Assembly: GCF_054482525.1 (NCBI RefSeq)
Contig: NZ_CM137006.1
Direction: 5' to 3' (one strand)
Length of the DNA: 64,000 nt
Shown one piece after another: positions 15,277 through 44,242 of this stretch. The notes beneath the pieces were generated by a model. It ran no database searches and was not told where the DNA came from. It worked only from the letters and a program-made list of their open reading frames with translations. The position numbers and the translations under genes were made by a program. Numbering within the stretch: position 1 is the stretch's first letter; each line of letters starts with the position of its first letter.

Positions 15277-16009
15277 ATGAAAAAATGGAAAGTACGTAGC
15301 GCGTTGGTGGCATTAGTCGTGCTGCTGGCCGGTTGTTCCAGTAATGCGCAGTATAATAGCAGTGCATCAGGCAATGTCGGCACCGCCTGGGGGGGGGGAT
15401 GTACACTCATCGGTTCAGGGCGTATCTGCTGAACGAGTCTGGCGCGATCCGGCAGAGATGATCGTTATTAGTTATTCGACTACTGTTCCTTCGGGCTACG
15501 ACCGCGTTTATAGCATTCGTATTAACGAACTGGAATATGCTATTCGCGATGGTAATTTTAATTCTCTACCTATTACGCGGGTTTATGATTCATCAAATAA
15601 TGAACCACGCTATATTATCCATGCCAGAGTAGGAATGAATTATCAATTATATGTCCGTAATTACAGTCGTAACACCAACTACGAGATCGTTGCTACGGTT
15701 GATGGCCTGGATGTTCTGAATGGTAAACAAGGTTCGCTGAATAACAACGGTTATATTGTGAATGCCGGAGATTCGTTAGCGATTAAAGGATTTCGCAAAG
15801 ATAAACATACCGAAGCGGCTTTTCAGTTCGCCAACGTTGCTGATTCCTACGCAGCCAATTCGGCGCAAGGCGATGTGCGTAATACCGGGGTAATCGGCTT
15901 TGCCGCCTTTGAATTACAAGGCTCGGCGCAAAACGCGATGCCGCCGTGCTCTGGACAAGCCTTTCCGGCAGATAACAATGGCTATGCGCCGCCACCGTGT
16001 CGGAAATAG
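15277..16009 (+). pseudogene. Lipoprotein gene interrupted by a frameshift at a G10 homopolymer; lipoprotein signal peptide in frame 1, ~200 aa mature domain in frame 2
   Basis: GAGGGA RBS, ATG 15277, MKKWKVRSALVALVVLLAGC lipobox; frame 1 stops at 15430-15432; removing one G from the 15389-15398 tract fuses it to ORF 15344..16009; no recognised domain in mature part. Confidence 0.55.
15389..15398. repeat. Homopolymeric G10 tract inside the lipoprotein coding sequence
   Basis: Ten consecutive G read directly from the sequence. Confidence 0.95.
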
Positions 16010-17871: not shown

Positions 17872-18148
17872 GTTTTTTCTTCCGCACAAGGTCAGGATTA
17901 TTCTAAAAATGCGCCGTTTGCAGGTGAACCGACGCTCAGTCTCAGTATAAGGAAAAGCGCAGCGGACGGGCGAGTAGATTGCGCAACATGCGAGCATGAT
18001 CCAGAGATTTCTGAAGCGGCAAAAGGATGTTCCATGTACATGACGCGCGGCTTGCGGTAAATTGTTGGCAAATTTTCCGGCGTAGCCCAAAACGCGCTGT
18101 CGTCAAGTCGTTAAGGGCGTGCCCTTCATCATCCGATCTGGAGTCAAA

Positions 18149-20140
18149 ATGTCCTCACGTAAAGAGCTTGCCAATGCTATTCGTGCGCTGAGCATGGACG
18201 CAGTACAGAAAGCCAAATCCGGTCACCCGGGTGCCCCTATGGGTATGGCTGACATTGCCGAAGTCCTGTGGCGTGATTTCCTGAAACACAACCCGCAGAA
18301 TCCGTCCTGGGCTGACCGTGACCGCTTCGTGCTGTCCAACGGCCACGGCTCCATGCTGATCTACAGCCTGCTGCACCTCACCGGTTACGATCTGCCGATG
18401 GAAGAACTGAAAAACTTCCGTCAGCTGCACTCTAAAACTCCGGGCCACCCGGAAGTGGGTTACACCGCTGGTGTGGAAACCACTACAGGTCCGCTGGGTC
18501 AGGGTATTGCCAACGCAGTCGGTATGGCGATTGCAGAAAAAACGCTGGCGGCGCAGTTTAACCGTCCGGGCCACGACATCGTCGACCACTACACCTACGC
18601 CTTCATGGGCGACGGCTGCATGATGGAAGGCATCTCCCACGAAGTTTGCTCTCTGGCGGGTACGCTGAAGCTGGGTAAACTGATTGCGTTCTACGATGAC
18701 AACGGTATCTCTATCGATGGTCACGTTGAAGGCTGGTTCACCGACGACACCGCAATGCGTTTCGAAGCTTACGGCTGGCACGTTATTCGCGGCATCGACG
18801 GTCATGATGCGGCATCCATCAAACGCGCAGTAGAAGAAGCGCGCGCAGTGACTGACAAACCGTCCCTGCTGATGTGCAAAACCATCATCGGTTTCGGTTC
18901 ACCGAACAAAGCCGGTACGCACGACTCCCACGGTGCGCCGCTGGGCGATGCTGAAATCGCCCTGACCCGCGAACAGCTGGGCTGGAAATATGCACCGTTC
19001 GAAATCCCGTCTGAAATCTATGCTCAGTGGGATGCGAAAGAAGCAGGCCAGGCGAAAGAATCCGCATGGAACGAGAAATTCGCGGCTTACGCCAAAGCTT
19101 ATCCGCAGGAAGCCGCTGAATTTACCCGCCGTATGAAAGGCGAAATGCCGTCTGACTTCGATGCCAAAGCTAAAGAATTCATCGCTAAACTGCAGGCTAA
19201 TCCGGCGAAAATCGCCAGCCGTAAAGCGTCTCAGAATGCGATTGAAGCGTTCGGTCCGCTGTTGCCGGAATTCCTCGGCGGCTCTGCTGACCTGGCACCG
19301 TCTAACCTGACCCTGTGGTCTGGTTCTAAAGCAATCAACGAAGATGCTGCGGGTAACTACATCCACTACGGTGTTCGCGAGTTCGGTATGACCGCGATTG
19401 CTAACGGTATCTCCCTGCACGGTGGTTTCCTGCCGTACACCTCCACCTTCCTGATGTTCGTGGAATACGCACGTAACGCCGTACGTATGGCTGCGCTGAT
19501 GAAACAGCGTCAGGTGATGGTTTACACCCACGACTCCATCGGTCTGGGCGAAGATGGCCCGACTCACCAGCCGGTAGAGCAGGTCGCTTCTCTGCGCGTG
19601 ACCCCGAACATGTCCACATGGCGTCCGTGTGACCAGGTTGAATCCGCGGTCGCGTGGAAATACGGCGTTGAGCGTCAGGACGGCCCGACTGCGCTTATCC
19701 TCTCCCGTCAGAACCTGGCGCAGCAGGAGCGTACTGAAGAGCAGCTGGCAAACATCGCGCGCGGTGGTTATGTGCTGAAAGACTGTGCCGGTCAGCCGGA
19801 ACTGATCTTCATCGCGACCGGTTCGGAAGTTGAACTGGCTGTTGCCGCCTACGAAAAACTGACTGCCGAAGGCGTGAAGGCGCGCGTGGTTTCCATGCCG
19901 TCTACCGACGCGTTCGACAAGCAGGATGCGGCTTACCGTGAATCCGTACTGCCGAAAGCGGTTACTGCACGCGTTGCGGTAGAAGCGGGTATTGCTGACT
20001 ACTGGTACAAGTATGTTGGCCTGAACGGCGCTATCGTCGGCATGACCACCTTCGGTGAATCTGCTCCGGCAGAGCAACTGTTTGAAGAGTTCGGTTTCAC
20101 CGTTGACAACGTTGTTGCGAAAGCGAAAGCGCTGCTGTAA
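18149..20140 (+). CDS. tktA: Transketolase 1 TktA, 663 aa
   Basis: Start [20 protein letters not shown] at ATG 18149; thiamine diphosphate enzyme. Confidence 0.95.
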
Positions 20141-20162
20141 TCGGTAAGATGCTTTGTGAGAA

Positions 20163-20188
20163 GGGCCGCGAAAGCGGCCCTTTTTTAC
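20163..20188 (+). terminator. Rho-independent terminator after tktA
   Basis: GGGCCGCGAAAGCGGCCC followed by TTTTTT; the convergent SPFH gene stop codon lies in the T-run. Confidence 0.6.
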
Positions 20189-21093
20189 TTGGTGGAGATA
20201 AACGGAACTGTGCTGCCGGGGATCATGGTATCGGGTAGCTTACCGTCCCAACGCTCTGCAGTGGTTAGGGCAACAAGTCCGGGATTATCCCGCAGAGCTT
20301 CACCGCGCAGGCGGATAGCTTCTGCTTCAGCCGCACTTTTTAAACGAATAGTTTCAGCCTCTGCCGCGCCTCTTACGCGAATAGTCTCAGCTTCTGCTTT
20401 GGCTGCCGCCAGTTTACTGTCTGCTTCAGCCTGGGCCTGAGTTACTGCTATTTGCGCCTGGATTTTCTCTGTTTCCAGATTTTGCCTACGAGTAGCAATT
20501 GCAACTTCCGCTTTCATTCGGTCTTCAATCGATTTTTCATAAGCATCTGAAAAATCGATATTCTCGATCTGAACTCCGTCTATCACTACCGGGCCAACAA
20601 CCGCTTTGCGCATCGCGTTTTGCAGATCCTGCACCAGTTTCGTACGATCTTGTACTGCGCTAATGGCTGTATATTGCCCGAAAACGTTCTCCAGTTGGGT
20701 TGGCAGCTGGCGGACGATCAGACGCTCTTTTAAAGATTCAATGGTGTTGTAGGTTGTATAAACTGCGCCAGCTTCTGAAGGTTTAATGTGGAAGCTGACT
20801 GATACTGTCATTTGTGCCGGTTGCTGGTCGCGGCTGTAGGCCTGTAATCCCTGATAGACCACAGCCTGATTACGCGTGGAAATTTTCTCCACGCTTTCCA
20901 TAAAAGGGATCTTAAAACCCAGCCCCGGCTCGGCAACTTTTACGATTTTTCCGTAGCGCAGCAAAATGCCGCGTTCACCTTCATTAACGGTGTAATACGA
21001 GAGAAATGGCAGCACAACCACGGCAAGCACGCCAATGACGATAGCAATAGATTTTTGTGGGCGAAATGAGGTTATTGAAACAGGTGCTTTCAT
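20185..21093 (-). CDS. SPFH/band-7 (prohibitin/HflC-like) membrane protein, ~302 aa, with C-terminal Ala/Glu-rich tandem repeats
   Basis: ATG(rc) 21093 with AAGGAAG RBS; N-terminal TM helix IAIVIGVLAVVVLPFL; SPFH-like core; three 11-aa repeats EAETIRVRGAA/EAETIRLKSAA/EAEAIRLRGEA. Confidence 0.75.
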   Translation of the reverse strand: MKAPVSITSFRPQKSIAIVIGVLAVVVLPFLSYYTVNEGERGILLRYGKIVKVAEPGLGFKIPFMESVEKISTRNQAVVYQGLQAYSRDQQPAQMTVSVSFHIKPSEAGAVYTTYNTIESLKERLIVRQLPTQLENVFGQYTAISAVQDRTKLVQDLQNAMRKAVVGPVVIDGVQIENIDFSDAYEKSIEDRMKAEVAIATRRQNLETEKIQAQIAVTQAQAEADSKLAAAKAEAETIRVRGAAEAETIRLKSAAEAEAIRLRGEALRDNPGLVALTTAERWDGKLPDTMIPGSTVPFISTK

Positions 21094-21469
21094 GACAATC
21101 TTCCTTGAGTAAAGTGGGGAATATGTCACATGAGGTGAGGAGAAAACAGCCGACAGGTGAGAATTCAGAATCTATAAAGGGGTATAGCGAAAAAACATTG
21201 CATTAGAAAAGTATGCTTTCGGATATTCAATAAATAAATGGCGATATGCATCACAAATACAATAACAAACAAAATATTGATTTTGTGATAAACATACCAA
21301 ATACAAAGTTGACTTTAAAAATATCAATTTCATGTTGTTGTTATTTAAAGTTTTATTATTTTTACTGATGAGGTTTTTCTTCTCGCGTGCCCAATTGCTT
21401 TCATTAAACCGCACGAGTATTTTATTTTTACCGCCGGACGGCACCCTAAAAATAAAATAAGGATAATTT

Positions 21470-21913
21470 ATGCGGCTTATTAATTATTTTCCAGAATCAT
21501 CAATCTCAGTTATACATTCAGCAAAAGATTGGCAGGAAGCTATCGATTTCTCGATGGCATCATTGCTGGATAAAAACTATATCAGCGAGAATTACATTCA
21601 GGCTATTAAATATTCCACCATGAGTAATGGCCCTTACTATATTCTCGCGCCAGGCGTGGCAATGCCTCATGCGCGACCAGAATGTGGGGCGCTTAAAACC
21701 GGGATGTCATTGACGTTACTTACACAAGGCGTTTATTTTCCGGGGAATGATGAGCCGATAAAATTACTCATCGGGCTTTCTGCTGCCGATGCCGATTCGC
21801 ACATTGGCGCTATTCAGGCGTTAAGTGAATTACTGTGCGAAGAAGAAATACTCGAAGAACTCTTAACAGCATCATCAGAAAAACAATTAGCGGACATTAT
21901 CAGCCGCGGATAA
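21470..21913 (+). CDS. cmtB: Cryptic mannitol-type PTS enzyme IIA component CmtB, 147 aa
   Basis: PTS EIIA-2 fold with active-site His region GVAMPHARPE. Confidence 0.85.
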   Translation: MRLINYFPESSISVIHSAKDWQEAIDFSMASLLDKNYISENYIQAIKYSTMSNGPYYILAPGVAMPHARPECGALKTGMSLTLLTQGVYFPGNDEPIKLLIGLSAADADSHIGAIQALSELLCEEEILEELLTASSEKQLADIISRG

Positions 21914-21940
21914 TGACTCTCTCCTCTACAGGATAATATT

Positions 21941-23329
21941 ATGGAAAACAAGTCTGCTCGTGCAAAGGTCCAGGCTTTTGGGGGCTTTTTGACTGCAATG
22001 GTCATCCCCAATATCGGTGCTTTTATTGCCTGGGGTTTTATAACTGCGTTATTTATTCCCACCGGTTGGCTGCCGAATGAACATTTCGCCAAAATTGTCG
22101 GCCCGATGATTACCTATTTATTGCCCGTGATGATTGGTTCTACTGGTGGTCACCTGGTCGGCGGTAAACGCGGCGCGGTCATGGGCGGAATCGGTACTAT
22201 TGGTGTGATCGTCGGCGCAGAGATCCCGATGTTCCTTGGCTCAATGATTATGGGGCCGCTCGGTGGTCTGGTCATAAAATATGTTGATAAGGCACTGGAA
22301 AAACGCATACCTGCCGGTTTTGAGATGGTTATCAATAACTTCTCATTAGGTATCGCGGGGATGCTCCTTTGTCTGCTGGGTTTTGAAGTGATCGGCCCGG
22401 CGGTGTTAATTGCCAATACTTTCGTCAAAGAGTGTATTGAGGCGCTGGTACATGCGGGTTATCTGCCTCTGCTGTCAGTCATCAATGAACCGGCGAAAGT
22501 GCTTTTCCTTAATAATGCGATCGATCAGGGCGTCTATTATCCGCTGGGAATGCAACAGGCTTCGGTTAACGGCAAATCCATCTTCTTTATGGTGGCATCC
22601 AATCCAGGGCCTGGCTTAGGACTGTTGCTGGCATTCACTCTGTTTGGTAAAGGGATGAGTAAGCGCTCTGCGCCTGGCGCGATGATTATTCACTTCCTCG
22701 GTGGGATCCACGAACTGTATTTCCCATATGTGCTGATGAAGCCACTGACCATTATTGCCATGATTGCGGGCGGTATGTCCGGCACCTGGATGTTTAACTT
22801 ACTGGATGGTGGTTTGGTGGCTGGCCCAAGCCCTGGCTCTATTTTTGCTTACCTGGCACTGACGCCGAAAGGCTCGTTCCTGGCGACAATTGCCGGTGTT
22901 ACGGTAGGTACCCTGGTGTCCTTTGCTATCACTTCGCTGATACTGAAGATGGAAAAAACGGTGGAAACGGAGAGCGAAGATGAGTTTGCTCAGTCAGCCA
23001 ATGCGGTTAAGGCGATGAAACAAGAGGGTGCATTCTCGTTAAGCAGGGTTAAGCGTATCGCCTTTGTTTGCGATGCGGGGATGGGCTCCAGTGCGATGGG
23101 CGCAACCACCTTCCGTAAACGTCTGGAAAAAGCGGGGCTGGCAATTGAAGTAAAACATTACGCGATAGAAAACGTGCCTGCGGATGCGGATATCGTTGTT
23201 ACTCATGCCAGTCTGGAAGGGCGCGTGAAACGTGTGACGGATAAACCGCTGATACTGATTAATAACTATATTGGCGATCCAAAACTCGACACTTTATTTA
23301 ATCAATTAACCGCCGAACATAAAAACTGA
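21941..23329 (+). CDS. cmtA: Cryptic mannitol-type PTS enzyme IICB component CmtA, 462 aa
   Basis: Membrane EIIC followed by EIIB domain (FVCDAGMGSSAMGA). Confidence 0.85.
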   Translation: MENKSARAKVQAFGGFLTAMVIPNIGAFIAWGFITALFIPTGWLPNEHFAKIVGPMITYLLPVMIGSTGGHLVGGKRGAVMGGIGTIGVIVGAEIPMFLGSMIMGPLGGLVIKYVDKALEKRIPAGFEMVINNFSLGIAGMLLCLLGFEVIGPAVLIANTFVKECIEALVHAGYLPLLSVINEPAKVLFLNNAIDQGVYYPLGMQQASVNGKSIFFMVASNPGPGLGLLLAFTLFGKGMSKRSAPGAMIIHFLGGIHELYFPYVLMKPLTIIAMIAGGMSGTWMFNLLDGGLVAGPSPGSIFAYLALTPKGSFLATIAGVTVGTLVSFAITSLILKMEKTVETESEDEFAQSANAVKAMKQEGAFSLSRVKRIAFVCDAGMGSSAMGATTFRKRLEKAGLAIEVKHYAIENVPADADIVVTHASLEGRVKRVTDKPLILINNYIGDPKLDTLFNQLTAEHKN

Positions 23330-23343
23330 TTGCCGAGGTAAAA

Positions 23344-24621
23344 ATGAAAACCAAAGTTGCTGCTATTTATGGCAAGCGGGATGTCCGTCTGCGCGAATTT
23401 GAACTGCCAGAAATTACCGATAATGAACTGTTAGTGAGTGTAATTTCTGACAGCGTCTGTTTATCGACCTGGAAAGCGGCGTTACTCGGTAGTGAACATA
23501 AACGCGTACCCGACGATTTAGAAAATCATCCGGTCATTACCGGGCATGAATGTGCCGGGGTTATTGTTGAAGTGGGTAAAAATCTCACCGACAAATATAA
23601 AAAAGGCCAGCGTTTTGTATTGCAACCGGCGATGGGGTTACCAAGCGGATATTCAGCGGGCTACAGCTACGAATATTTTGGCGGTAACGCCACCTATATG
23701 ATTATTCCCGAGATCGCCATTAACCTGGGCTGCGTATTACCGTACCACGGCTCTTATTTTGCTGCGGCGTCGCTGGCAGAGCCTATGTGCTGCATTATTG
23801 GCGCTTATCATGCCAATTATCACACCACGCAATATGTTTATGAGCATCGCATGGGAGTTAAACCTGGCGGCAATATTGCGCTGCTGGCGTGTGCAGGTCC
23901 GATGGGCATTGGCGCTATCGATTATGCTATTAACGGCGGCATACAACCGTCGCGGGTGGTGGTGGTCGATATCGACGACAAACGCCTGGCGCAGGTACAA
24001 AAGCTGCTGCCGGTGGAACTGGCGGCCAGTAAAGGCATTGAGCTGGTGTATGTGAATACCAAAGGGATGAGCGATCCGGTCCAGACGCTGCGGGCGCTGA
24101 CGGATGATGCCGGATTTGATGACGTATTTGTCTATGCAGCGGTGCCTTCAGTCGTCGAGATGGCTGATGAATTACTGGCGGAAGATGGCTGCCTGAACTT
24201 CTTTGCCGGGCCGACGGATAAAAACTTCAAAGTGCCGTTTAATTTCTACAACGTCCATTACAACAGCACGCATGTCGTCGGTACGTCCGGCGGTTCAACG
24301 GACGACATGAAAGAGGCGATTGCGCTTAGCGCCACGGGGCAGTTACAGCCGTCGTTTATGGTGACCCATATCGGTGGCCTGGATGCAGTGCCAGAAACCG
24401 TGCTCAATCTGCCGGATATCCCCGGAGGTAAAAAACTCATTTATAACGGCGTGACCATGCCGCTGACTGCCATTGCCGATTTTGCCGAAAAAGGCAAAAC
24501 CGATCCGCTGTTTAAAGAGCTGGCGCGGCTGGTTGAGGAAACGCACGGCATCTGGAATGAGCAGGCCGAGAAATATCTGCTGGCGCAATTTGGCGTTGAT
24601 ATCGGGGAGGCCGCGCAATGA
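23344..24621 (+). CDS. yggP: Zinc-dependent alcohol/polyol dehydrogenase-like protein YggP, 425 aa
   Basis: MDR family GHECAGVI zinc motif; matches K-12 YggP length. Confidence 0.85.
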   Translation: MKTKVAAIYGKRDVRLREFELPEITDNELLVSVISDSVCLSTWKAALLGSEHKRVPDDLENHPVITGHECAGVIVEVGKNLTDKYKKGQRFVLQPAMGLPSGYSAGYSYEYFGGNATYMIIPEIAINLGCVLPYHGSYFAAASLAEPMCCIIGAYHANYHTTQYVYEHRMGVKPGGNIALLACAGPMGIGAIDYAINGGIQPSRVVVVDIDDKRLAQVQKLLPVELAASKGIELVYVNTKGMSDPVQTLRALTDDAGFDDVFVYAAVPSVVEMADELLAEDGCLNFFAGPTDKNFKVPFNFYNVHYNSTHVVGTSGGSTDDMKEAIALSATGQLQPSFMVTHIGGLDAVPETVLNLPDIPGGKKLIYNGVTMPLTAIADFAEKGKTDPLFKELARLVEETHGIWNEQAEKYLLAQFGVDIGEAAQ

Positions 24622-25583
24622 TGTCCCTGGCGTGGCCATTATTTCGCGTTACGGAACAGGCAGCGTTGGCTGCCTGGCCGCAAACCGGATGTGGCGACAA
24701 AAATAAAATTGATGGCCTGGCGGTCACCGCGATGCGCCAGGCGTTGAACGACGTCGCTTTTCGTGGGCGAGTGGTTATCGGCGAGGGAGAGATTGACCAT
24801 GCGCCGATGCTGTGGATTGGCGAAGAGGTGGGCAAAGGCGATGGGCCAGAAGTCGATATCGCGGTTGATCCCATTGAAGGTACGCGGATGGTGGCGATGG
24901 GGCAGAGCAATGCGCTGGCGGTCATGGCTTTCGCCCCTCGAGATAGCCTGTTACATGCGCCCGATATGTATATGAAAAAGCTGGTTGTTAATCGACAGGC
25001 TGCCGGGGCGATTGATCTGTCTTTGCCTCTGGCGGACAACTTGCGTAACGTGGCGCGGGCGTTAGGCAAACCGCTGGACAAGTTGCGTATGGTTACGCTG
25101 GATAAACCGCGCCTGAGAGTAGCGATTGATGAAGCGACACTGCTGGGCGTGAAGGTTTTTGCCCTGCCGGATGGCGATGTCGCCGCCAGCGTGCTGACCT
25201 GCTGGCAGGATAATCCTTACGATGTGATGTACACCATCGGCGGTGCGCCAGAAGGCGTGATTTCTGCCTGTGCCGTTAAAGCATTAGGCGGGGATATGCA
25301 GGCCGAGCTGATTGACTTTTGTCAGGCTAAAGGGGATTACACGGAAAATCGGCAGATTGCAGAGCAGGAGCGCAAGCGTTGCATGGAAATGGGCGTTGAC
25401 GTTAACCGTGTGTACTCGCTCGATGAACTGGTGAAGGGGAACGATATCCTCTTTAGCGCTACGGGCGTGACGGGCGGCGAATTGGTGAACGGTATCCAAC
25501 AGACGGCGAATGGGGTGCGGACGCAGACATTACTGATCGGCGGCGCGGACCAAACGTGTAATATAATAGACTCCCTGCATTGA
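24618..25583 (+). CDS. yggF: Class II fructose-1,6-bisphosphatase (GlpX-like) YggF, 321 aa
   Basis: GlpX-family sequence; 4-nt overlap with yggP. Confidence 0.85.
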   Translation: MMSLAWPLFRVTEQAALAAWPQTGCGDKNKIDGLAVTAMRQALNDVAFRGRVVIGEGEIDHAPMLWIGEEVGKGDGPEVDIAVDPIEGTRMVAMGQSNALAVMAFAPRDSLLHAPDMYMKKLVVNRQAAGAIDLSLPLADNLRNVARALGKPLDKLRMVTLDKPRLRVAIDEATLLGVKVFALPDGDVAASVLTCWQDNPYDVMYTIGGAPEGVISACAVKALGGDMQAELIDFCQAKGDYTENRQIAEQERKRCMEMGVDVNRVYSLDELVKGNDILFSATGVTGGELVNGIQQTANGVRTQTLLIGGADQTCNIIDSLH

Positions 25584-25604
25584 TGGTGATCTATCGGAAG
25601 ACCA

Positions 25605-26114
25605 ATGGCGACGCTGACAGAAGATGATGTGCTTGAGCAACTGGATGCACAGGACAATTTATTTTCATTTATGAATACTGCGCATTCTATTTTGCTCCAG
25701 GGGATACGCCAGTTTCTGCCGTCGCTGTTTGTCGATAACGATGAAGAGATCGTCGAATATGCAGTGAAGCCGTTACTCGCCCAAAGCGGCCCGCTTGACG
25801 ATATTGATGTTGCACTGCGTTTGATTTATGCGCTGGGGAAAATGGATAAATGGCTGTACGCCGATATCACGCACTTTTCCCAGTTCTGGCATTACCTGAA
25901 CGAACAGGATGAAATGCCCGGATTTGCCGATGACATGACCTGGGATTTTATCAGCAACGTCAATAGCATAACCCGCAATGCGACGCTCTATGACGCGTTG
26001 AAAGCGATGAAGTTCGCCGATTTCGCCGTCTGGTCAGAGGCGCGTTTTAGCGGGATGGTCAAAACGGCGCTGACGCTGGCAGTAACGACAACCTTAAAGG
26101 AATTAACGCCGTGA
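25605..26114 (+). CDS. yggD: MtlR-like transcriptional regulator YggD, 169 aa
   Basis: Full ORF at K-12 yggD position. Confidence 0.8.
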   Translation: MATLTEDDVLEQLDAQDNLFSFMNTAHSILLQGIRQFLPSLFVDNDEEIVEYAVKPLLAQSGPLDDIDVALRLIYALGKMDKWLYADITHFSQFWHYLNEQDEMPGFADDMTWDFISNVNSITRNATLYDALKAMKFADFAVWSEARFSGMVKTALTLAVTTTLKELTP

Positions 26115-26824
26115 AAATTGAATTAACGGTGAATGGTCTGAAGGTACAGGCACAGTACCATGATGATGAGATAGAAAACGTACATAAACCGTTGCTGCGC
26201 ATGTTGGCGGCCTTACAGACGGTAAATCCACAGCGGCGTACGGTAGTTTTTCTTTGCGCTCCGCCGGGGACGGGGAAATCTACCCTAACCACCTTCTGGG
26301 AATATCTCGCGCAACAAGACCCGGAACTACCCGCTATACAGACGCTGCCGATGGATGGTTTTCACCATTACAATAGCTGGCTGGATGCGCATCAATTGCG
26401 CCCCTTCAAAGGCGCACCAGAGACATTTGACGTTGCGAAACTGGCGGAAAATCTGCGCCAGGTAATGGAAGGGGATTGTACGTGGCCACAGTACGATCGA
26501 CAAAAGCATGATCCTGTTGAAGATGCGTTGCACGTTACCGCACCCCTCGTCATCGTCGAAGGAAACTGGCTATTACTGGATGATGAAAAGTGGCAGGAGT
26601 TGGCATCTTTCTGCGATTTTTCTATTTTTATTCATGCACCTGCTCAAATTCTGCGGGAACGCTTGATTAGTCGTAAAATTGCGGGAGGATTATCGCGGCA
26701 AGAAGCCGAAGCTTTTTATGCCCGAACCGATGGTCCCAATGTCGAGCGTGTGCTGGTGAATAGTCGTCAGGCCAATCTGATATTAGAGATGACCGAAGAA
26801 GGCAGATATCACTTCAAAAGCTGA
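26111..26824 (+). CDS. yggC: P-loop kinase-like protein YggC, 237 aa
   Basis: Walker A CAPPGTGKST; GTG start overlapping yggD stop. Confidence 0.8.
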   Translation: MKIELTVNGLKVQAQYHDDEIENVHKPLLRMLAALQTVNPQRRTVVFLCAPPGTGKSTLTTFWEYLAQQDPELPAIQTLPMDGFHHYNSWLDAHQLRPFKGAPETFDVAKLAENLRQVMEGDCTWPQYDRQKHDPVEDALHVTAPLVIVEGNWLLLDDEKWQELASFCDFSIFIHAPAQILRERLISRKIAGGLSRQEAEAFYARTDGPNVERVLVNSRQANLILEMTEEGRYHFKS

Positions 26825-27108
26825 CAATTTATTCCAGTTATTGCAGGGGTATTATTACGCCAGCCTGGAATAAAGACCCCTACAAAAGGGGATAAAAGTG
26901 TGATGTAAGTCAGATAAATGTCTTCTTCGGCTGGACAATCATTCCTTTTATTCCACGTTTCGCTTATCCTAGCTGAAGCGTTTCAGTCGATTAAATGTTC
27001 GACAATTAACCAATCAGTCGCAGTTTGCGACAGGTAAGGTTTCCCCGGACGATTTGCTGGATTACTCTGTCTGGCAAATTTGCTCAGGGAAAACCTTGCA
27101 GGAGATCT

Positions 27109-28128
27109 ATGACCGTACGCGTAGCGATAAATGGCTTCGGTCGCATCGGGCGTAATGTGGTTCGTGCTTTGTATGAATCCGGACGCCGGGCGGAAATTAC
27201 CGTGGTGGCAATCAACGAACTGGCGGATGCTGCGGGCATGGCGCATTTGTTGAAATATGACACCAGCCATGGCCGTTTTGCATGGGAAGTACGACAGGAA
27301 CGCGATCAACTTTTTGTTGGTGATGACGCCATCCGCGTATTGCATGAACGTTCACTGCAATCGCTCCCCTGGCGTGAACTTGGCGTTGATGTAGTCCTCG
27401 ACTGCACCGGCGTATATGGCTCCCGCGAGCATGGCGAAGCGCATATTGCCGCCGGGGCTAAAAAAGTGCTCTTTTCACATCCTGGCAGTAACGATCTCGA
27501 TGCGACCGTTGTTTACGGCGTCAATCAGGATCAACTTCGTGCGGAACACCGCATCGTTTCTAACGCTTCCTGTACCACGAATTGCATAATTCCCGTCATC
27601 AAATTGTTAGATGATGCGTACGGTATTGAGTCCGGCACTGTGACCACAATTCACTCCGCCATGCACGATCAACAGGTTATTGATGCATACCATCCTGACC
27701 TGCGTCGCACCCGGGCAGCCAGCCAGTCGATCATTCCGGTCGATACTAAACTGGCCGCCGGTATCACACGATTTTTTCCGCAATTTAACGATCGCTTTGA
27801 AGCGATTGCGGTACGTGTGCCAACCATAAATGTGACGGCAATCGATTTAAGCGTGACGGTGAAGAAACCTGTAAAAGCCAATGAAGTCAACCTGTTGCTG
27901 CAAAAAGCAGCACAAGGTGCATTTCATGGTATAGTTGACTATACGGAATTGCCGTTGGTCTCTGTAGATTTTAACCACGATCCGCACAGTGCCATTGTCG
28001 ATGGCACCCAAACCCGGGTCAGTGGCGCACACCTGATCAAAACGTTGGTCTGGTGCGATAACGAATGGGGCTTTGCTAACCGAATGCTCGACACGACGTT
28101 AGCTATGGCTACTGTTGCTTTCAGGTAA
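27109..28128 (+). CDS. epd: D-erythrose-4-phosphate dehydrogenase Epd, 339 aa
   Basis: Start [15 protein letters not shown] at ATG 27109; GAPDH-family fold. Confidence 0.9.
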
Positions 28129-28177
28129 GACGCAAGCAGCGTCTGCAAAACTTTTAGAATCAACGAGAGGATTCACC

Positions 28178-29341
28178 ATGTCTGTAATTAAGATGACCGA
28201 TCTGGATCTTGCTGGGAAACGTGTATTTATCCGTGCGGATCTGAACGTACCAGTAAAAGACGGGAAAGTAACCAGCGACGCGCGTATCCGTGCTTCTCTG
28301 CCGACCATCGAACTGGCCCTGAAACAAGGCGCAAAAGTGATGGTAACTTCCCACCTGGGTCGTCCTACCGAAGGCGAGTACAACGAAGAATTCTCTCTGC
28401 TGCCGGTTGTTAACTACCTGAAAGACAAACTGTCTAACCCGGTTCGTTTGGTTAAAGATTACCTCGACGGCGTTGACGTTGCTGAAGGTGAACTGGTTGT
28501 TCTGGAAAACGTTCGCTTCAACAAAGGCGAGAAGAAAGACGACGAAACTCTGTCCAAAAAATACGCTGCACTGTGTGACGTGTTCGTAATGGACGCATTC
28601 GGTACTGCTCACCGCGCGCAGGCTTCTACTCACGGTATCGGTAAATTTGCTGATGTTGCGTGCGCAGGTCCGCTGCTGGCAGCTGAACTGGACGCGCTGG
28701 GTAAAGCACTGAAAGAACCTGCTCGCCCGATGGTGGCTATCGTTGGTGGTTCTAAAGTATCTACCAAACTGACCGTTCTGGACTCCTTGTCTAAAATCGC
28801 TGACCAGCTGATTGTTGGTGGTGGTATCGCTAACACCTTTATCGCGGCACAAGGCCACGATGTGGGTAAATCTCTGTACGAAGCTGACCTGGTTGACGAA
28901 GCTAAACGTCTGCTGACCACCTGCAACATCCCGGTTCCGTCTGATGTTCGCGTAGCAACCGAGTTCTCTGAAACTGCACCGGCTACCCTGAAATCTGTTA
29001 ACGATGTGAAAGCTGACGAGCAGATCCTGGATATCGGTGATGCTTCCGCTCAGGAACTGGCTGAAATCCTGAAGAATGCGAAAACCATTCTGTGGAACGG
29101 TCCGGTTGGCGTGTTCGAATTCCCGAACTTCCGCAAAGGTACTGAAATCGTGGCTAACGCTATCGCAGACAGCGAAGCGTTCTCCATCGCTGGCGGCGGC
29201 GACACTCTGGCAGCAATCGACCTGTTCGGCATTGCTGACAAAATCTCCTACATCTCCACTGGCGGCGGCGCATTCCTCGAATTCGTGGAAGGTAAAGTAC
29301 TGCCTGCAGTAGCGATGCTCGAAGAGCGCGCTAAGAAGTAA
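28178..29341 (+). CDS. pgk: Phosphoglycerate kinase Pgk, 387 aa
   Basis: Start [25 protein letters not shown] at ATG 28178 with GAGAGGA RBS. Confidence 0.95.
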
Positions 29342-40951: not shown

Positions 40952-42277
40952 TTAACGCATACAAAAACGGTCGAAATGGAAGTTTTGGCTGGCAATCCCA
41001 TTTTCATATAACCCTTTGCTGAGCGCTTTGGCAAAACTCTGTGGGCCGCAAAACCAGAAATGGGTGTCACCTTTATTTGCTATTTTATCAGTAAGATAGT
41101 GCACCTGTAGGCGCTCACCTTTATGCGCATCAAGCAGATGCAGTGTGACCCTGGCCTGGGCACAAAGTGAGGTCAGTTTATCAATATACCAGGCATCCTC
41201 GCTTCGGCTGACGCAATACCAGAGATCCACAGGAACAAAGGACGCGCCATGATGTTTACGATACTCAAGCTGGGCGATAAAGGGGGTAATGCCGATGCCT
41301 CCTGCTATCCAGACCTGGTGGGAGCAAGGGAGAGTAAAATCAAACTTTCCCCATGGCCCTTCAACGAAGGCGGACTGGCCGATTTTTATCGAGGATGCCA
41401 GAGTCGAGGTATAATCCCCTAAATGTTTGATCGCAAAGCGCAACGTGTTCTTCTCTTTGGTATATGAAGCGATAGTAAAAGGGTGAGATTCTTTACTGTG
41501 TGCGAACGTTAAGAATGCAAACTGCCCCGGAGAATAGTCGATGGCATGTTCCAGCTCAAGGGTGACTTCGGTAATTTGTCCCGGATGGTTAACAATGTTT
41601 TTAATGGTAGCCTGATGCTTGTTTTTACTACCGTTTAATTTCAGCAGCGAAATGAAAGCCGCAAAGACGCCCGGAATAGTAATTAAAATTAATAAATACG
41701 CAGCAGGAGTTTCCCACCAGTATGATTTAAACAAAGCAGTAAACACATGAAAGGCAATTGCCAGATAAAAGACGGGGAACAAACGGTGAACAAGATGAAA
41801 TAAATGATAGGGAACTCTTTTGCTAAGAGACACGAAAACCATCGCTATCATAATAAACATTGCACATTCACCCGCCAACAGTCCCGCATGAAGCCAATTT
41901 TCTTGTACTGGCGTCAGGTTAATATCAACGATTTTACCAGGGTGAGTAAGCCAGCCAAAGGCGACGAATAACTGGGGTAATTTTTCATCCAGCCAGTGGG
42001 CGAAAGCAAACGCTATGGCGCATATTCCTGCCCACTTATGTAATCGCCATGCTTTATCCAGACCGCCCAGCACTTTGTTAAGCCATGATGAACGCAACGA
42101 TAAACACATCGTCAGCGTCATCAGACACCACGCAAGGGTTCCCGTAAAAAAGAGTATGTTTTGTCGAAGGAACCATATTAGCGCGATTGGCTTTTCACGA
42201 AAAATATCACCGGACGACAAAAAAATAAGGCATGCGACAAAGCAAACCAACGTACCTGTAAGATTAGCTTTTTTCAT
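40952..42277 (-). CDS. NOX/ferric-reductase-like membrane flavocytochrome (6-TM bis-heme domain fused to FAD- and NAD(P)H-binding domains), 441 aa
   Basis: His pairs H-x13-H ([15 protein letters not shown]) and H-x12-H ([14 protein letters not shown]); FAD motif HPFTIAS; NAD motif GGIGITPF; C-terminal CGP motif; start codon uncertain (weak RBS). Confidence 0.7.
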
Positions 42278-42338
42278 TTTTTATTTCATTTTGGCAGCGG
42301 AGCATGGAATAACTCCATGCTCCCGTTAAACAGAGTGA

Positions 42339-42599
42339 TTATTTATAGAAAATCACAGTGGCGTGGATATAATTTTTACCGGAGAAAGAACTGATGTAGT
42401 AATTGCTGGCTTGTAACTCTTCCGCTTTCTCTTTAATTTGGCTTTCAACGCCCGCTGGATTGCTATTGTGTGTGGACATGCTCACTTTTGATAACTGTTC
42501 AAGATTATTGTCCGGTTTGTGTATCTCGGTTGCTGCAAATGCGTGTCCTGTGAGAGTGCAAAGAAATAATGCGGCAAATAAATTTTGCTTAATAGACAT
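42339..42599 (-). CDS. Small secreted DUF1471 (YdgH/BhsA/McbA-family) stress protein, 86 aa
   Basis: AAGGAG RBS; signal peptide MSIKQNLFAALFLCTLTGHAFA; C-terminal ...YISSFSGKNYIHATVIFYK resembles BhsA family ending. Confidence 0.65.
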   Translation of the reverse strand: MSIKQNLFAALFLCTLTGHAFAATEIHKPDNNLEQLSKVSMSTHNSNPAGVESQIKEKAEELQASNYYISSFSGKNYIHATVIFYK

Positions 42600-42615
42600 A
42601 ATAACTCCTTTTATA

Positions 42616-43245
42616 TTAAAGATAATGATTAAATACGTGTGTTATGAGATCAGGGATTTGCGCTAATGCATTTTGCTCGGCGAGTTCGCGTCCCGGTTGG
42701 GTTTTGTCGACGCCTTCCGCACGTAAAATATGTGTATTGGTAATGCCCATTAATTTCAGCGTGGCTTGCAGATAACTTTCCTGATGATCCAGCGCCAGAT
42801 GTGCTTCATCGCAATAGATACCGCCGCGCGTCGAGACAATAAACGTCGGTTTATCCGTCAGTAACCCAACGGCACCAGCGGAAGTAAAACGAAACGTTAA
42901 ACCAGCCTGACAGACCTGATCTATCCAGGTTTTGAGGCCAGATGAAACGCTGTGATTAATCATCGGCGCGCCAATAATGAGCACATCGCACGATGCCAGT
43001 TCATCAATAGCAGCGTGGATATCATTCACCTCCTGCTGAATTTGTGCGTTCTCGCACTCCGCTTTACCGCAAAGCGCCAGAAAGGTTTCTTCACGCAAAT
43101 GGGGTGGGGGCGTCAGGCCAACGTCGCGATGAATAATTGTGGCTTGCGCGAAACGTTGGCAAAGCGCTTCTACCAGCGCCTGGCTTAATTTCCGCGAACT
43201 TGAATGCTTAAGCATTGGACTGCTATCGATATGGAGAATTTTCAT
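42616..43245 (-). CDS. FMN-dependent NADH azoreductase/quinone reductase-like flavoprotein (AzoR/AcpD family), 209 aa
   Basis: Flavodoxin-like fold; MKILHIDSSP..., DVLIIGAPMINHSVSSGLKTWIDQV, FIVSTRGGIY parallel AzoR motifs. Confidence 0.7.
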   Translation of the reverse strand: MKILHIDSSPMLKHSSSRKLSQALVEALCQRFAQATIIHRDVGLTPPPHLREETFLALCGKAECENAQIQQEVNDIHAAIDELASCDVLIIGAPMINHSVSSGLKTWIDQVCQAGLTFRFTSAGAVGLLTDKPTFIVSTRGGIYCDEAHLALDHQESYLQATLKLMGITNTHILRAEGVDKTQPGRELAEQNALAQIPDLITHVFNHYL

Positions 43246-43322
43246 GGGGTTGCTCTCATTTCTGCGATGAGAGAAGTTTAATTGTTGTTGATATGGTGAT
43301 TAAATAGACATAATTGAACTTC

Positions 43323-43344
43323 ATTGTTGTGAAAATAGAACAAT
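43323..43344. promoter_or_regulatory. Candidate LysR-type binding box (ATTGTT-N10-AACAAT) in the divergent promoter region
   Basis: Perfect 6-bp inverted repeat with 10-bp spacer ending 2 bp before the LysR start codon. Confidence 0.3.
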
Positions 43345-43345
43345 C

Positions 43346-44242
43346 ATGATCGACTGGAATGATTACTACTACTTTGCCCTGATTGCCGATGAAGGCAGCT
43401 ACAGCCAGGCGGCGCTGCGTGCGGGTGTGTCGAAATCGGTATTAAGCCGTCGAATGGCAGCGCTGGAAGAGCGCCTCGGCGTGAGGCTTATTCAGCGAAC
43501 TACGCGGCGTCTGGCCCTGACGGCGGCAGGGGAACAGTTTGCTGTCGAGTGTCGGGCGCTGGTGGCTCAGGGGGAACGGGCCAGAGCGGTGGTGATGGCC
43601 GCCCAGGAAAGCCCACAGGGAATGCTGCGCGTCAGCGCGCCGGTATTTATGGCTGAAACATGGTTTGGTGAGTTCGTCAGTGAATTTATCGCCCGCTGGC
43701 CCCTGGCGAAGGTGCAACTGCTGGCAATTAATCGCCCGGTGGATATGGTCGCTGAAGGCATTGATATTGCGCTGGTTACGGCTTCCGGCGCGCTTGCGGA
43801 CTCGACGCTGCATTATAAAAAATTACATACCCAGGCTGATATTTTAGTTGCCAGTTCGCAGTGGCTGGCCCGCCATCCGCAGGTGAAGGCCATTGACGAT
43901 CTTAACCGCGTCGACGGGATCCTCCGCCTGACGAACAATGGCGGGAGCCAGTGGCAGTTAATGAATGGCGACCAGGAGATTACGCTGCATCCCGAGGCGC
44001 GTTTGCAGACAAATAACATTCGCATCATGTTGCAGGCAGTGCTTGGCGGGAATGGCGTGGCGTTATTGCCTCAATTTGCCTGTAAACAGGGGCTTGCCAA
44101 CGGTGAACTGGTGCGCCTGTTCGCACCGTGGAGCGGCATACCCAGACCGTTGTATGCTTTATTTGCCGGGCGAAAGGGGATGCCCGCCATTGCGCGATAT
44201 TTTATGGATGAGTTAACCACGCGGCTTGCCAACGGGGTCTGA
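43346..44242 (+). CDS. LysR-family transcriptional regulator, 298 aa (intact counterpart of the K-12 yqfE pseudogene position)
   Basis: [36 protein letters not shown]; divergent from the azoreductase-like operon. Confidence 0.8.

Follow-up and report, generated by a model that had tools for sequence, protein, structure and literature searches.

The cmt-ygg cluster, cmtB-cmtA-yggP-yggF-yggD-yggC, occupies positions 21470–26824 of a 64,000-nucleotide stretch of an Escherichia coli chromosome (NCBI RefSeq assembly GCF_054482525.1, contig NZ_CM137006.1), here called the window, and has been annotated in this species for three decades as the 'cryptic mannitol' cluster. The cluster is intact, and we consider it probable, on balance, that it forms one CRP-dependent catabolic operon, with a proposed route for a hexitol and with YggD as its repressor. 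We read YggD, provisionally, as a repressor anchored on CRP because a pair of CRP-like sites upstream of cmtB has the spacing used by MtlR, because the residues by which MtlR contacts CRP are invariant in YggD, and because the IIB loop of the transporter CmtA is identical to that of MtlA.

Gene content of the cluster

The identities of the six genes are beyond doubt. Their open reading frames (ORFs), all on the plus strand, coincide with the coding sequences that RefSeq gives as cmtB, cmtA, yggP, a glpX-type fructose-1,6-bisphosphatase (FBPase; yggF), fumE (yggD) and yggC in a 100%-identical E. coli chromosome, and all have the same lengths as in K-12:

cmtB, 21470–21913, plus strand: enzyme IIA (EIIA; PTS_EIIA_2 superfamily) of a phosphotransferase system (PTS), 147 amino acids (aa); NF007358 at 316 bits (cut-off 192); PDB 2oq3
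cmtA, 21941–23329, plus strand: PTS EIICB of the mannitol family, 462 aa; PF02378 and PF02302
yggP, 23344–24621, plus strand: long-form zinc-dependent medium-chain dehydrogenase/reductase (MDR), assigned as a SorE paralogue, 425 aa; ADH_N and ADH_zinc_N
yggF, 24618–25583, plus strand: class II (GlpX-type) FBPase, 321 aa; 4-nt overlap with yggP
yggD (annotated fumE), 25605–26114, plus strand: MtlR-family HEPN-fold protein, 169 aa; PF05068 score of 178 bits against 25.2; PDB 3c8g
yggC, 26111–26824, plus strand: P-loop kinase of the PRK/uridine-kinase/PanK family, 237 aa, GTG start; 4-nt overlap with yggD

The domain content agrees throughout with the first-pass annotation, made from the sequence alone, which had named an EIIA, an EIICB, a zinc dehydrogenase, a GlpX-type FBPase, an MtlR-like regulator and a P-loop kinase. 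CmtB retains the histidine motif MPHA, from residue 65. CmtA passes the curated cut-offs of TIGR00851 (480 against 468.4) and NF011663 (592.5 against 589), and shares 52% identity with MtlA, including an identical IIB loop, CDAGMGSSAMGA, which begins at the phosphorylatable Cys377 (the CDAGMGSS loop); by its domains, family scores and IIB cysteine it is classed as an EIICB of the PTS mannitol family (TC 4.A.2). In YggP, Cys39, His68, Glu69 and the GPMGIG motif are conserved. YggF matches the equivalog model TIGR00330 (575.9 against a cut-off of 259.3) and the E. coli GlpX structures (E = 6e-108 to 8e-107), and is 96.9% identical to K-12 YggF, whose FBPase activity is credited to Brown et al. 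2009 in the citing paper PMC8719807. YggC has a Walker A motif, GTGKS, at residue 53 and scores 508 with NF006742 (cut-off 402); its closest PDB entry is 3c8u, labelled 'fructokinase' (E = 1e-21), with PanK entries at about 1e-10, and it was predicted independently to be a sugar/polyol kinase (PMC3223725).

The window is assigned to the E. coli chromosome, with bases 21000–27500 being 100% identical to several complete genomes. At least 80% of this interval is carried by 5387 of 5426 complete E. coli genomes; the allele found here, at ≥99% identity over the interval, occurs in only 16 of 5425.

A conserved pair of CRP-like sites upstream of cmtB

The cmtB promoter region has been shown to be bound and activated by CRP (PMC3105977), and a PcmtA fusion to green fluorescent protein (GFP) to be CRP-dependent (PMC12412646). 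Scanning with the core TGTGA-N6-TCACA, and counting matches out of the 10 core positions, we found two CRP-like sites upstream of cmtB, separated by 44 bp centre to centre both in the window and in K-12. A predicted promoter lies downstream of them:

Distal CRP-like site GGCGATATGCATCACA, 21240–21255, no strand assigned: centre at 21247.5, −222.5 from the cmtB ATG; 8/10 matches
Proximal CRP-like site TGTGATAAACATACCA, 21284–21299, no strand assigned: centre at 21291.5, −178.5 from the cmtB ATG; 8/10 matches
Predicted sigma-70 promoter TTGCTT-17 nt-TATTTT, 21395–21423, plus strand: the best-conserved upstream block across Enterobacterales

When the intergenic sequence was put through 5000 dinucleotide shuffles, 0.04% of them gave a pair with both sites at ≥8/10 and a spacing of 43–46 bp. 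Throughout the 64-kb window 34 sites reach ≥8/10, and just one pair of these, that upstream of cmtB, is spaced by 43–46 bp. Applied to mtl, the scan finds the published sites again, at spacings of 43, 44, 73 and 44 bp. The arrangement is widely conserved: a pair at 44–45 bp is found in 48 of 52 distinct Enterobacterales upstream regions at ≥7/10, and in 33 of the 52 at ≥8/10, and every other 2-bp spacing bin tested holds at most 2 of the 52 loci at ≥8/10. Across these regions the half-sites are conserved, and the N6 and inter-site sequences vary freely. K-12 and most Enterobacterales also hold a site at the distal position, with a differing sequence. Upstream of the cmtB ATG, near-identity to K-12 extends over ~95 bp, and identity in the rest of the region is ~60%. 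A TTGAC block beside the proximal CRP site was considered as a −35 element and rejected, there being no acceptable −10 element at 16–18 bp.

YggD as a proposed CRP-docking regulator

MtlR of E. coli lacks a DNA-binding domain; to repress, it docks on a pair of CRP dimers that are bound to DNA at sites 43–46 bp apart, the optimum being 44–45 bp. This docking requires R167 and L178 of MtlR, and release occurs when MtlR binds the dephosphorylated IIB active-site loop of MtlA (PMC13421365, July 2026). That study states that mtl is the sole one of 331 CRP-regulated units with a spacing of 43–46 bp, and mentions neither YggD nor cmt. The operator arrangement required for MtlR-type docking, two CRP sites 43–46 bp apart, is found at cmtB.

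YggD itself matches proteins of the HEPN/MtlR fold without a DNA-binding domain (PF05068; PDB 3c8g, 6kcr and 3brj). Its score with the NF008234 'MltR family' model is 87, below the cut-off of 149, and YggD is thus a distinct subfamily. The two residues that MtlR needs for CRP docking are invariant in 15 YggD and 2 MtlR sequences, R167 and L178 of MtlR corresponding to R147 and L158 of YggD. From these observations we propose that YggD is the MtlR-type repressor of the operon and not primarily a fumarase, that it would dock on two DNA-bound CRP dimers upstream of cmtB, and that it would be released during transport through sequestration by the dephosphorylated IIB domain of CmtA. We regard a role of YggD as a CRP-docking regulator of the cmt-ygg operon as somewhat better than an even prospect, judging from the sequence comparisons.

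Comparison with the mtlADR operon is instructive on both sides. Both operons have an EII of the Mtl family, encode an MtlR-family protein and have CRP-dependent promoters with tandem CRP or CRP-like sites 44 bp apart, and the CRP-contact arginine and leucine are conserved between the two regulators. In contrast, the EIIA of cmt is a separate protein (CmtB), closer to the ascorbate-type IIA than to IIA-Mtl, and the cluster lacks MtlD, having instead a SorE-like zinc dehydrogenase, a P-loop kinase and an FBPase. The ~25 residues at the N terminus of MtlR have no counterpart in YggD, identity between the two proteins is only 36% over ~105 residues, and one CRP pair was detected at cmtB, whereas mtl has five sites.

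The assignment differs from the present name of the gene, which is fumE, 'fumarase E', both in RefSeq and in K-12. That YggD is the metabolic fumarase FumE with no regulatory role, and the cluster a cryptic PTS juxtaposed with unrelated enzymes, has this name in its favour; we nevertheless judge it improbable. At thresholds, no fumarase or lyase family in Pfam or NCBIfam matches YggD; its only family matches are MtlR (PF05068, 178 bits) and the YggD equivalog, in the words of NCBIfam a 'putative DNA-binding transcriptional regulator', and its fold is that of HEPN/MtlR proteins (PDB 3c8g). Moreover, YggD occurs only where CRP exists, a PRD regulator taking its place in Firmicutes, the CRP-contact residues of MtlR are invariant in it, and the promoter has the CRP geometry that recruits MtlR. 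The name 'fumarase E' derives from an in-vitro metabolomics assignment, as it is cited in PMC8464067, and fumarase activity in vitro and a regulatory role are not mutually exclusive. The first-pass annotation had already called yggD an MtlR-like regulator; this is at odds with RefSeq, yet it is the assignment favoured by the family, fold, contact-residue and promoter evidence.

Some observations count against YggD as a CRP-anchored repressor. The CRP-like sites upstream of cmtB in the window are only 8/10 matches, and they lie ~140–185 bp upstream of the predicted promoter. In addition, chromatin immunoprecipitation with exonuclease treatment (ChIP-exo) gave no peaks for YggD, which the authors described as 'verified as fumarase E' (PMC8464067). 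For this, the cells were grown in glucose medium and YggD carried an 8xmyc tag at its C terminus (PMC8464067), and we judge the negative result weak, since glucose lowers both CRP occupancy and cmt expression and the tag lies beside the putative CRP-contact helix; these conditions, unfavourable to the detection of a CRP-docking protein, also reduce what the experiment can contribute to the fumarase assignment.

A core module shared by enterobacteria, vibrios and Clostridia

For comparison, one genome per species was scanned with a YggP alignment, and the six proteins, together with some neighbours, were mapped onto the 80 retrieved loci. An invariant core of EIIA, Mtl-family EIICB, YggP and YggC, adjacent and co-directional, is present in all sufficiently long loci of the 80 genomes and is found in Enterobacterales, Vibrionaceae and Clostridia/Lachnospiraceae, with YggP identities of 63–68% in the core loci of Vibrionaceae and Clostridia. 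The FBPase YggF is a lineage-specific accessory outside this core: Enterobacteriaceae, Serratia, Yersinia and Providencia have yggF, and Rahnella and Budvicia lack it. Other companions occupy comparable positions elsewhere, namely a YcdX-like PHP phosphatase directly after yggC in Vibrionaceae, and a pyrophosphate-dependent phosphofructokinase (PPi-PFK) adjoining the regulator gene in two Clostridia lineages, seen in Hungatella/Lacrimispora and in one other Bacillota metagenome-assembled genome.

YggD is confined to the gammaproteobacterial versions of the cluster. In its place the Firmicute versions have a PRD-type regulator of ~680 aa with helix-turn-helix (HTH), Mga and PRD domains, in some cases with an EIIA-like domain, and beyond this regulator no further consistently conserved pathway genes were found in the Firmicute neighbourhoods. 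The tkt and epd-pgk-fbaA flanks are limited to Enterobacteriaceae.

Single loci depart from this pattern in various ways. In Rahnella (loci L049–L053) a cmt-like cluster without yggF lies directly upstream of the true mtl operon and is followed by a second Mtl-family EII, ~51% identical to CmtA, and then by the true MtlR orthologue. In Garciella an unrelated gat-like cluster, which includes a tagatose-bisphosphate aldolase, stands beside the core, and the Anaerotalea neighbourhood contains enzyme I and a transketolase. In a Lacrimispora/Hungatella locus (L004, 5282–7344) the PRD-type regulator, a single ORF of 674–704 aa in other Firmicutes, is split between two gene calls, of 385 and 304 aa, that overlap; the split reflects a frameshift or else an artefact of assembly or gene calling.

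Proposed pathway

The closest characterised relative of YggP is SorE. Identity to Klebsiella pneumoniae SorE, encoded in a canonical sor operon, is 45.6% over 98% of the length, and to the Lactiplantibacillus counterpart it is 42%; YggP resembles these proteins along its full length (42–46% identity), has the long C-terminal extension that they have, and shares their catalytic and nucleotide-binding motifs. SorE is associated with a mannose-family PTS and a glucitol-6-phosphate dehydrogenase of the short-chain dehydrogenase/reductase (SDR) family, whereas in none of the 80 loci was YggP found with a mannose-family sorbose PTS, SorD and SorC, the partners being instead a mannitol-family PTS and the kinase YggC. 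Because its genomic association differs in this way from that of genuine sor operons, YggP is best placed in a paralogous subfamily and not equated with SorE.

SorE interconverts L-sorbose-1-phosphate and D-glucitol-6-phosphate, acting on the carbon beside the phosphorylated one. By our stereochemical reasoning, glucitol-6-phosphate and mannitol-1-phosphate differ only at the distal C5, so that a reaction between mannitol-1-phosphate and fructose-1-phosphate would be a small step from SorE chemistry. Thus, CmtB and CmtA would take up and phosphorylate a mannitol-like hexitol to the hexitol-1-phosphate, and YggP would oxidise the carbon beside the phosphate to give a ketose-1-phosphate, in the simplest case converting mannitol-1-phosphate to fructose-1-phosphate. 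YggC would then phosphorylate the YggP product to fructose-1,6-bisphosphate (FBP), which would enter glycolysis, and YggF would provide fructose-6-phosphate (F6P) for biosynthesis.

The invariance of YggC in the core suggests that a second phosphorylation is needed for the product or the substrate of YggP. Minimal Firmicute clusters consist of the PTS, the kinase and the dehydrogenase only, which makes the route through FBP the simplest closure onto central metabolism. The companions of the core are, by lineage, three unrelated enzymes: YggF, PPi-PFK and the YcdX-like PHP phosphatase, to which no specificity is assigned. YggF and PPi-PFK could interconvert FBP and F6P, and the set is consistent with a bisphosphate end product that is sometimes converted to a 6-phosphate. 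The sequence from hexitol through hexitol-1-phosphate and fructose-1-phosphate to FBP is offered tentatively on these comparative grounds, and we hold it somewhat less likely than a different course of the pathway.

The proposed logic resembles that of fruBKA, where a PTS-derived 1-phosphate is converted to FBP (by FruK) and an FBPase is needed for anabolism; it would differ in that the cmt-ygg kinase belongs to the P-loop PRK/PanK family and not to PfkB, and in that an oxidation step would come first. The gat system is also a PTS hexitol pathway in which a zinc-dependent MDR enzyme (GatD, galactitol-1-phosphate 5-dehydrogenase) acts on a hexitol phosphate and a kinase then forms a bisphosphate. 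YggP is only ~25% identical to GatD, and no tagatose-bisphosphate aldolase is present in or beside the cluster, except in the unrelated neighbouring cluster of Garciella.

A pathway running in the direction of SorE was also considered, in which the PTS would deliver a ketose phosphorylated at C1, YggP would form a hexitol phosphate from it by reduction, and the position of the phosphate would then be exchanged by YggC and YggF (1-phosphate to 1,6-bisphosphate to 6-phosphate), with no FBP passing into glycolysis. SorE does act reductively on a ketose-1-phosphate, and Enterobacteriaceae and Vibrionaceae alike combine a kinase with a 1-phosphatase, the phosphatases of the two groups being non-homologous. 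However, the transporter belongs to the mannitol (hexitol) family, being 52% identical to MtlA, the loci of Rahnella, Budvicia and most Firmicutes have no phosphatase in the cluster, so that the exchange is not obligatory, and the cluster has no second dehydrogenase to re-oxidise the hexitol phosphate. We therefore think this direction unlikely.

As for the oxidative route through FBP, several considerations weigh on the other side. E. coli already has mtlADR, and a second mannitol route needs a rationale. The regiochemistry of YggP and the substrate of YggC are inferred from homology and gene context, and a kinase and a bisphosphatase within one operon could be read in other ways. The literature searched yielded no transcript, enzyme or binding data for the locus and no substrate assignment for the cluster, in line with the first-pass annotation, which had spoken of known genes with an unresolved substrate; 'sugar alcohol' as the substrate class is itself an inference. 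Finally, a screen of the PcmtA-GFP fusion on 198 Biolog carbon sources gave nucleosides as the best inducers, and no polyol (PMC12412646). In the same study, deletion of cmtA raised the minimal inhibitory concentration (MIC) of tobramycin (PMC12412646), so that K-12 must express the operon to some extent.

Nucleoside response and inner half-sites

The nucleoside response bears on the reading of the promoter as well. It is conceivable that a CytR-type anti-activator responding to nucleosides acts through the tandem CRP sites, or that these simply allow synergistic activation by CRP, with no docking of YggD in either case, and the identity of the best inducers of PcmtA-GFP would fit the former. 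Uridine, however, also elicited a response from 14 of 18 sugar-transporter promoters (PMC12412646), and the induction by nucleosides is thus probably a general effect of cyclic AMP (cAMP).

In many Enterobacterales (loci L012–L048: Citrobacter, Salmonella, Klebsiella and others) the inner half-sites, at about −225 to −165 from cmtB, are TTGCA/TGCAA and not TCACA/TGTGA. These recur too often for noise, and may reflect a second factor, perhaps CytR-like, or a docking mode of the MtlR-family protein. They resemble the CytR half-site, but the upstream region of the E. coli window has no TTGCAA motifs. CytR-regulated promoters have CRP sites ~50–53 bp apart, unlike the 44–45 bp found here, which is exactly the optimum for MtlR. 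Taken together, we consider that neither an anti-activator of the CytR type nor plain synergistic activation is at all likely to account for the tandem sites.

Operon structure and integrity

The distances between consecutive genes are 27, 14, −4, 21 and −4 bp. Both 4-nt overlaps noted by the first-pass annotation in its tightly packed, co-directional block are present, all genes being on the plus strand: that between yggP and yggF, at 24618–24621, reads GCGCAATGATGTCC (ATGA), and that between yggD and yggC, at 26111–26114, reads ACGCCGTGAAAATT (GTGA). The −4 overlap is retained in 36 of 46 Enterobacterales loci for yggP/yggF and in 44 of 52 for yggD/yggC, and the other junctions are mostly 11–33 bp; given this conservation of overlaps and short junctions, the packing goes beyond chance. 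Gene order and orientation are kept across about 50 Enterobacterales species. A consensus scan of the block returned 7 promoter-like sites (9.5 expected from shuffles) and 10 terminator-like sites (7.7 expected), neither in excess over shuffles, which lends no support to internal transcription units. With tight and conserved junctions, internal sites at the level of shuffles, and conserved order and orientation, cmtB-yggC very likely constitutes a single operon; the single-operon reading of the first-pass annotation is in this way supported indirectly, co-transcription being suggested by the arrangement of the genes.

Two further elements were noted:

Sigma-54-like motif CTGGCGGCAATATTGCG, 23864–23880, plus strand: inside yggP, overlapping the codons for PGGNIA
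Short palindromic stem-loop CCCCTACAAAAGGGG, 26877–26891, no strand assigned: 53 bp after yggC, weak as a terminator candidate, the plus strand having no T-run

The first is one base off IS35, an intragenic sigma-54 site reported in yggP by ChIP-seq (PMC4591121). It is lost through synonymous changes outside Escherichia and, its synonymous positions not being conserved there, it was rejected as an internal promoter and is probably incidental. No convincing terminator was found 3' of yggC, and an Rfam scan of 20000–27500 at E ≤ 0.1 gave no match to a known riboswitch or leader.

Pseudogenisation in this strain, which the first-pass annotation had named as an observation that would speak against it, was looked for and not found. 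The six ORFs have no internal stops, and the ratios of nonsynonymous to synonymous divergence (dN/dS, Nei-Gojobori) against K-12 lie between 0.006 and 0.17 (cmtB 0.17, cmtA 0.006, yggP 0.04, yggF 0.14, yggD 0.15, yggC 0.15), cmtA having 1 nonsynonymous and 52 synonymous changes. All six genes are under purifying selection and the cluster is not decaying; with no internal stops and low dN/dS, 'cryptic' does not mean decaying. An unexpressed evolutionary relic drifting to loss in E. coli, as the historical name 'cryptic mannitol' PTS, the lack of an inducing polyol among the 198 compounds, the AT-rich upstream region (31–35% GC, typical of silenced DNA) and the higher variability of cmtB and yggC than of the other genes might suggest, is very improbable and largely refuted by the selection and prevalence data, the six ORFs being intact with dN/dS ≤ 0.17, the block being present in >99% of complete E. 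coli genomes, the promoter being active and CRP-dependent, cmtA deletion altering the tobramycin MIC, and the module being conserved across phyla.

Surroundings of the cluster

Between tkt and cmtB, and divergent from cmtB, the window has an SPFH/Band-7 'prohibitin family' gene (20185–21093, minus strand), which is absent in K-12, where tktA and cmtB stand 313 bp apart. Of 5426 complete E. coli genomes 1830 carry this gene, as do E. albertii, E. whittamii and another Escherichia sp. When the arrangements with and without it are compared, good conservation is limited to the final ~95 bp ahead of the cmtB ATG. A 90-aa ORF with a GTG start (21172–21444, minus strand) in the AT-rich region upstream of cmtB (31–35% GC) is unannotated and probably spurious. 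For tkt, the program-made ORF starts at 18119 (GTG), and RefSeq places the start at an ATG at 18149.

Synonymous divergence (dS) from K-12 over 18149–29341 is 0.09–0.17 for tkt through yggC and 0.008–0.024 for epd and pgk. This abrupt shift places a recombination boundary, in all likelihood, in the yggC-epd spacer, at ~26825–27108. The same spacer contains a CRP-like site, TGTGATGTAAGTCAGA, at 26899–26914, with 9/10 core matches by eye, which presumably belongs to the CRP-regulated epd-pgk-fbaA promoter region.

Farther away, RefSeq has a frameshifted hypothetical gene between speA and speB (15277–16009), and a four-gene block between argP and rpiA (40952–44242) encodes a ferric-reductase-like membrane protein, a DUF1471 protein, an FMN azoreductase and a LysR regulator; this block is probably absent from K-12.

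Implications

A more far-reaching version of these proposals can be entertained, which we regard as speculative and rather doubtful as a whole. In this version cmt-ygg would be a second natural target of the MtlR mechanism, with YggD, misnamed fumarase E, docking on the 44-bp CRP pair and being freed by dephosphorylated CmtA; MtlR itself may cross-repress cmt; and the operon would encode an undescribed route from hexitol-1-phosphate through a ketose-1-phosphate to a ketose-1,6-bisphosphate, by way of a SorE-like dehydrogenase and a PRK-like sugar-phosphate kinase, common to enterobacteria, vibrios and gut Clostridia. Cross-repression by MtlR is possible because MtlR recognises only the geometry of CRP and, if true, it would account for the 'cryptic' behaviour of the cmt operon.

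The cmt-ygg cluster is one of the few conserved carbohydrate clusters of E. coli without a known substrate, and its core module yields a concrete biochemical hypothesis. The effect of CmtA on aminoglycoside susceptibility gives its regulation some applied interest. The cmtB promoter is a second and phylogenetically conserved case of the 43–46 bp CRP spacing, standing beside an MtlR paralogue, and its architecture bears both on the function of YggD and on the 'fumarase E' annotation that is spreading through RefSeq. What the present analysis adds is a defined cross-phylum core module (PTS, YggP and YggC) in three bacterial lineages, a testable pathway hypothesis, and a conserved promoter architecture arguing that the 'fumarase E' gene encodes the repressor of the operon.

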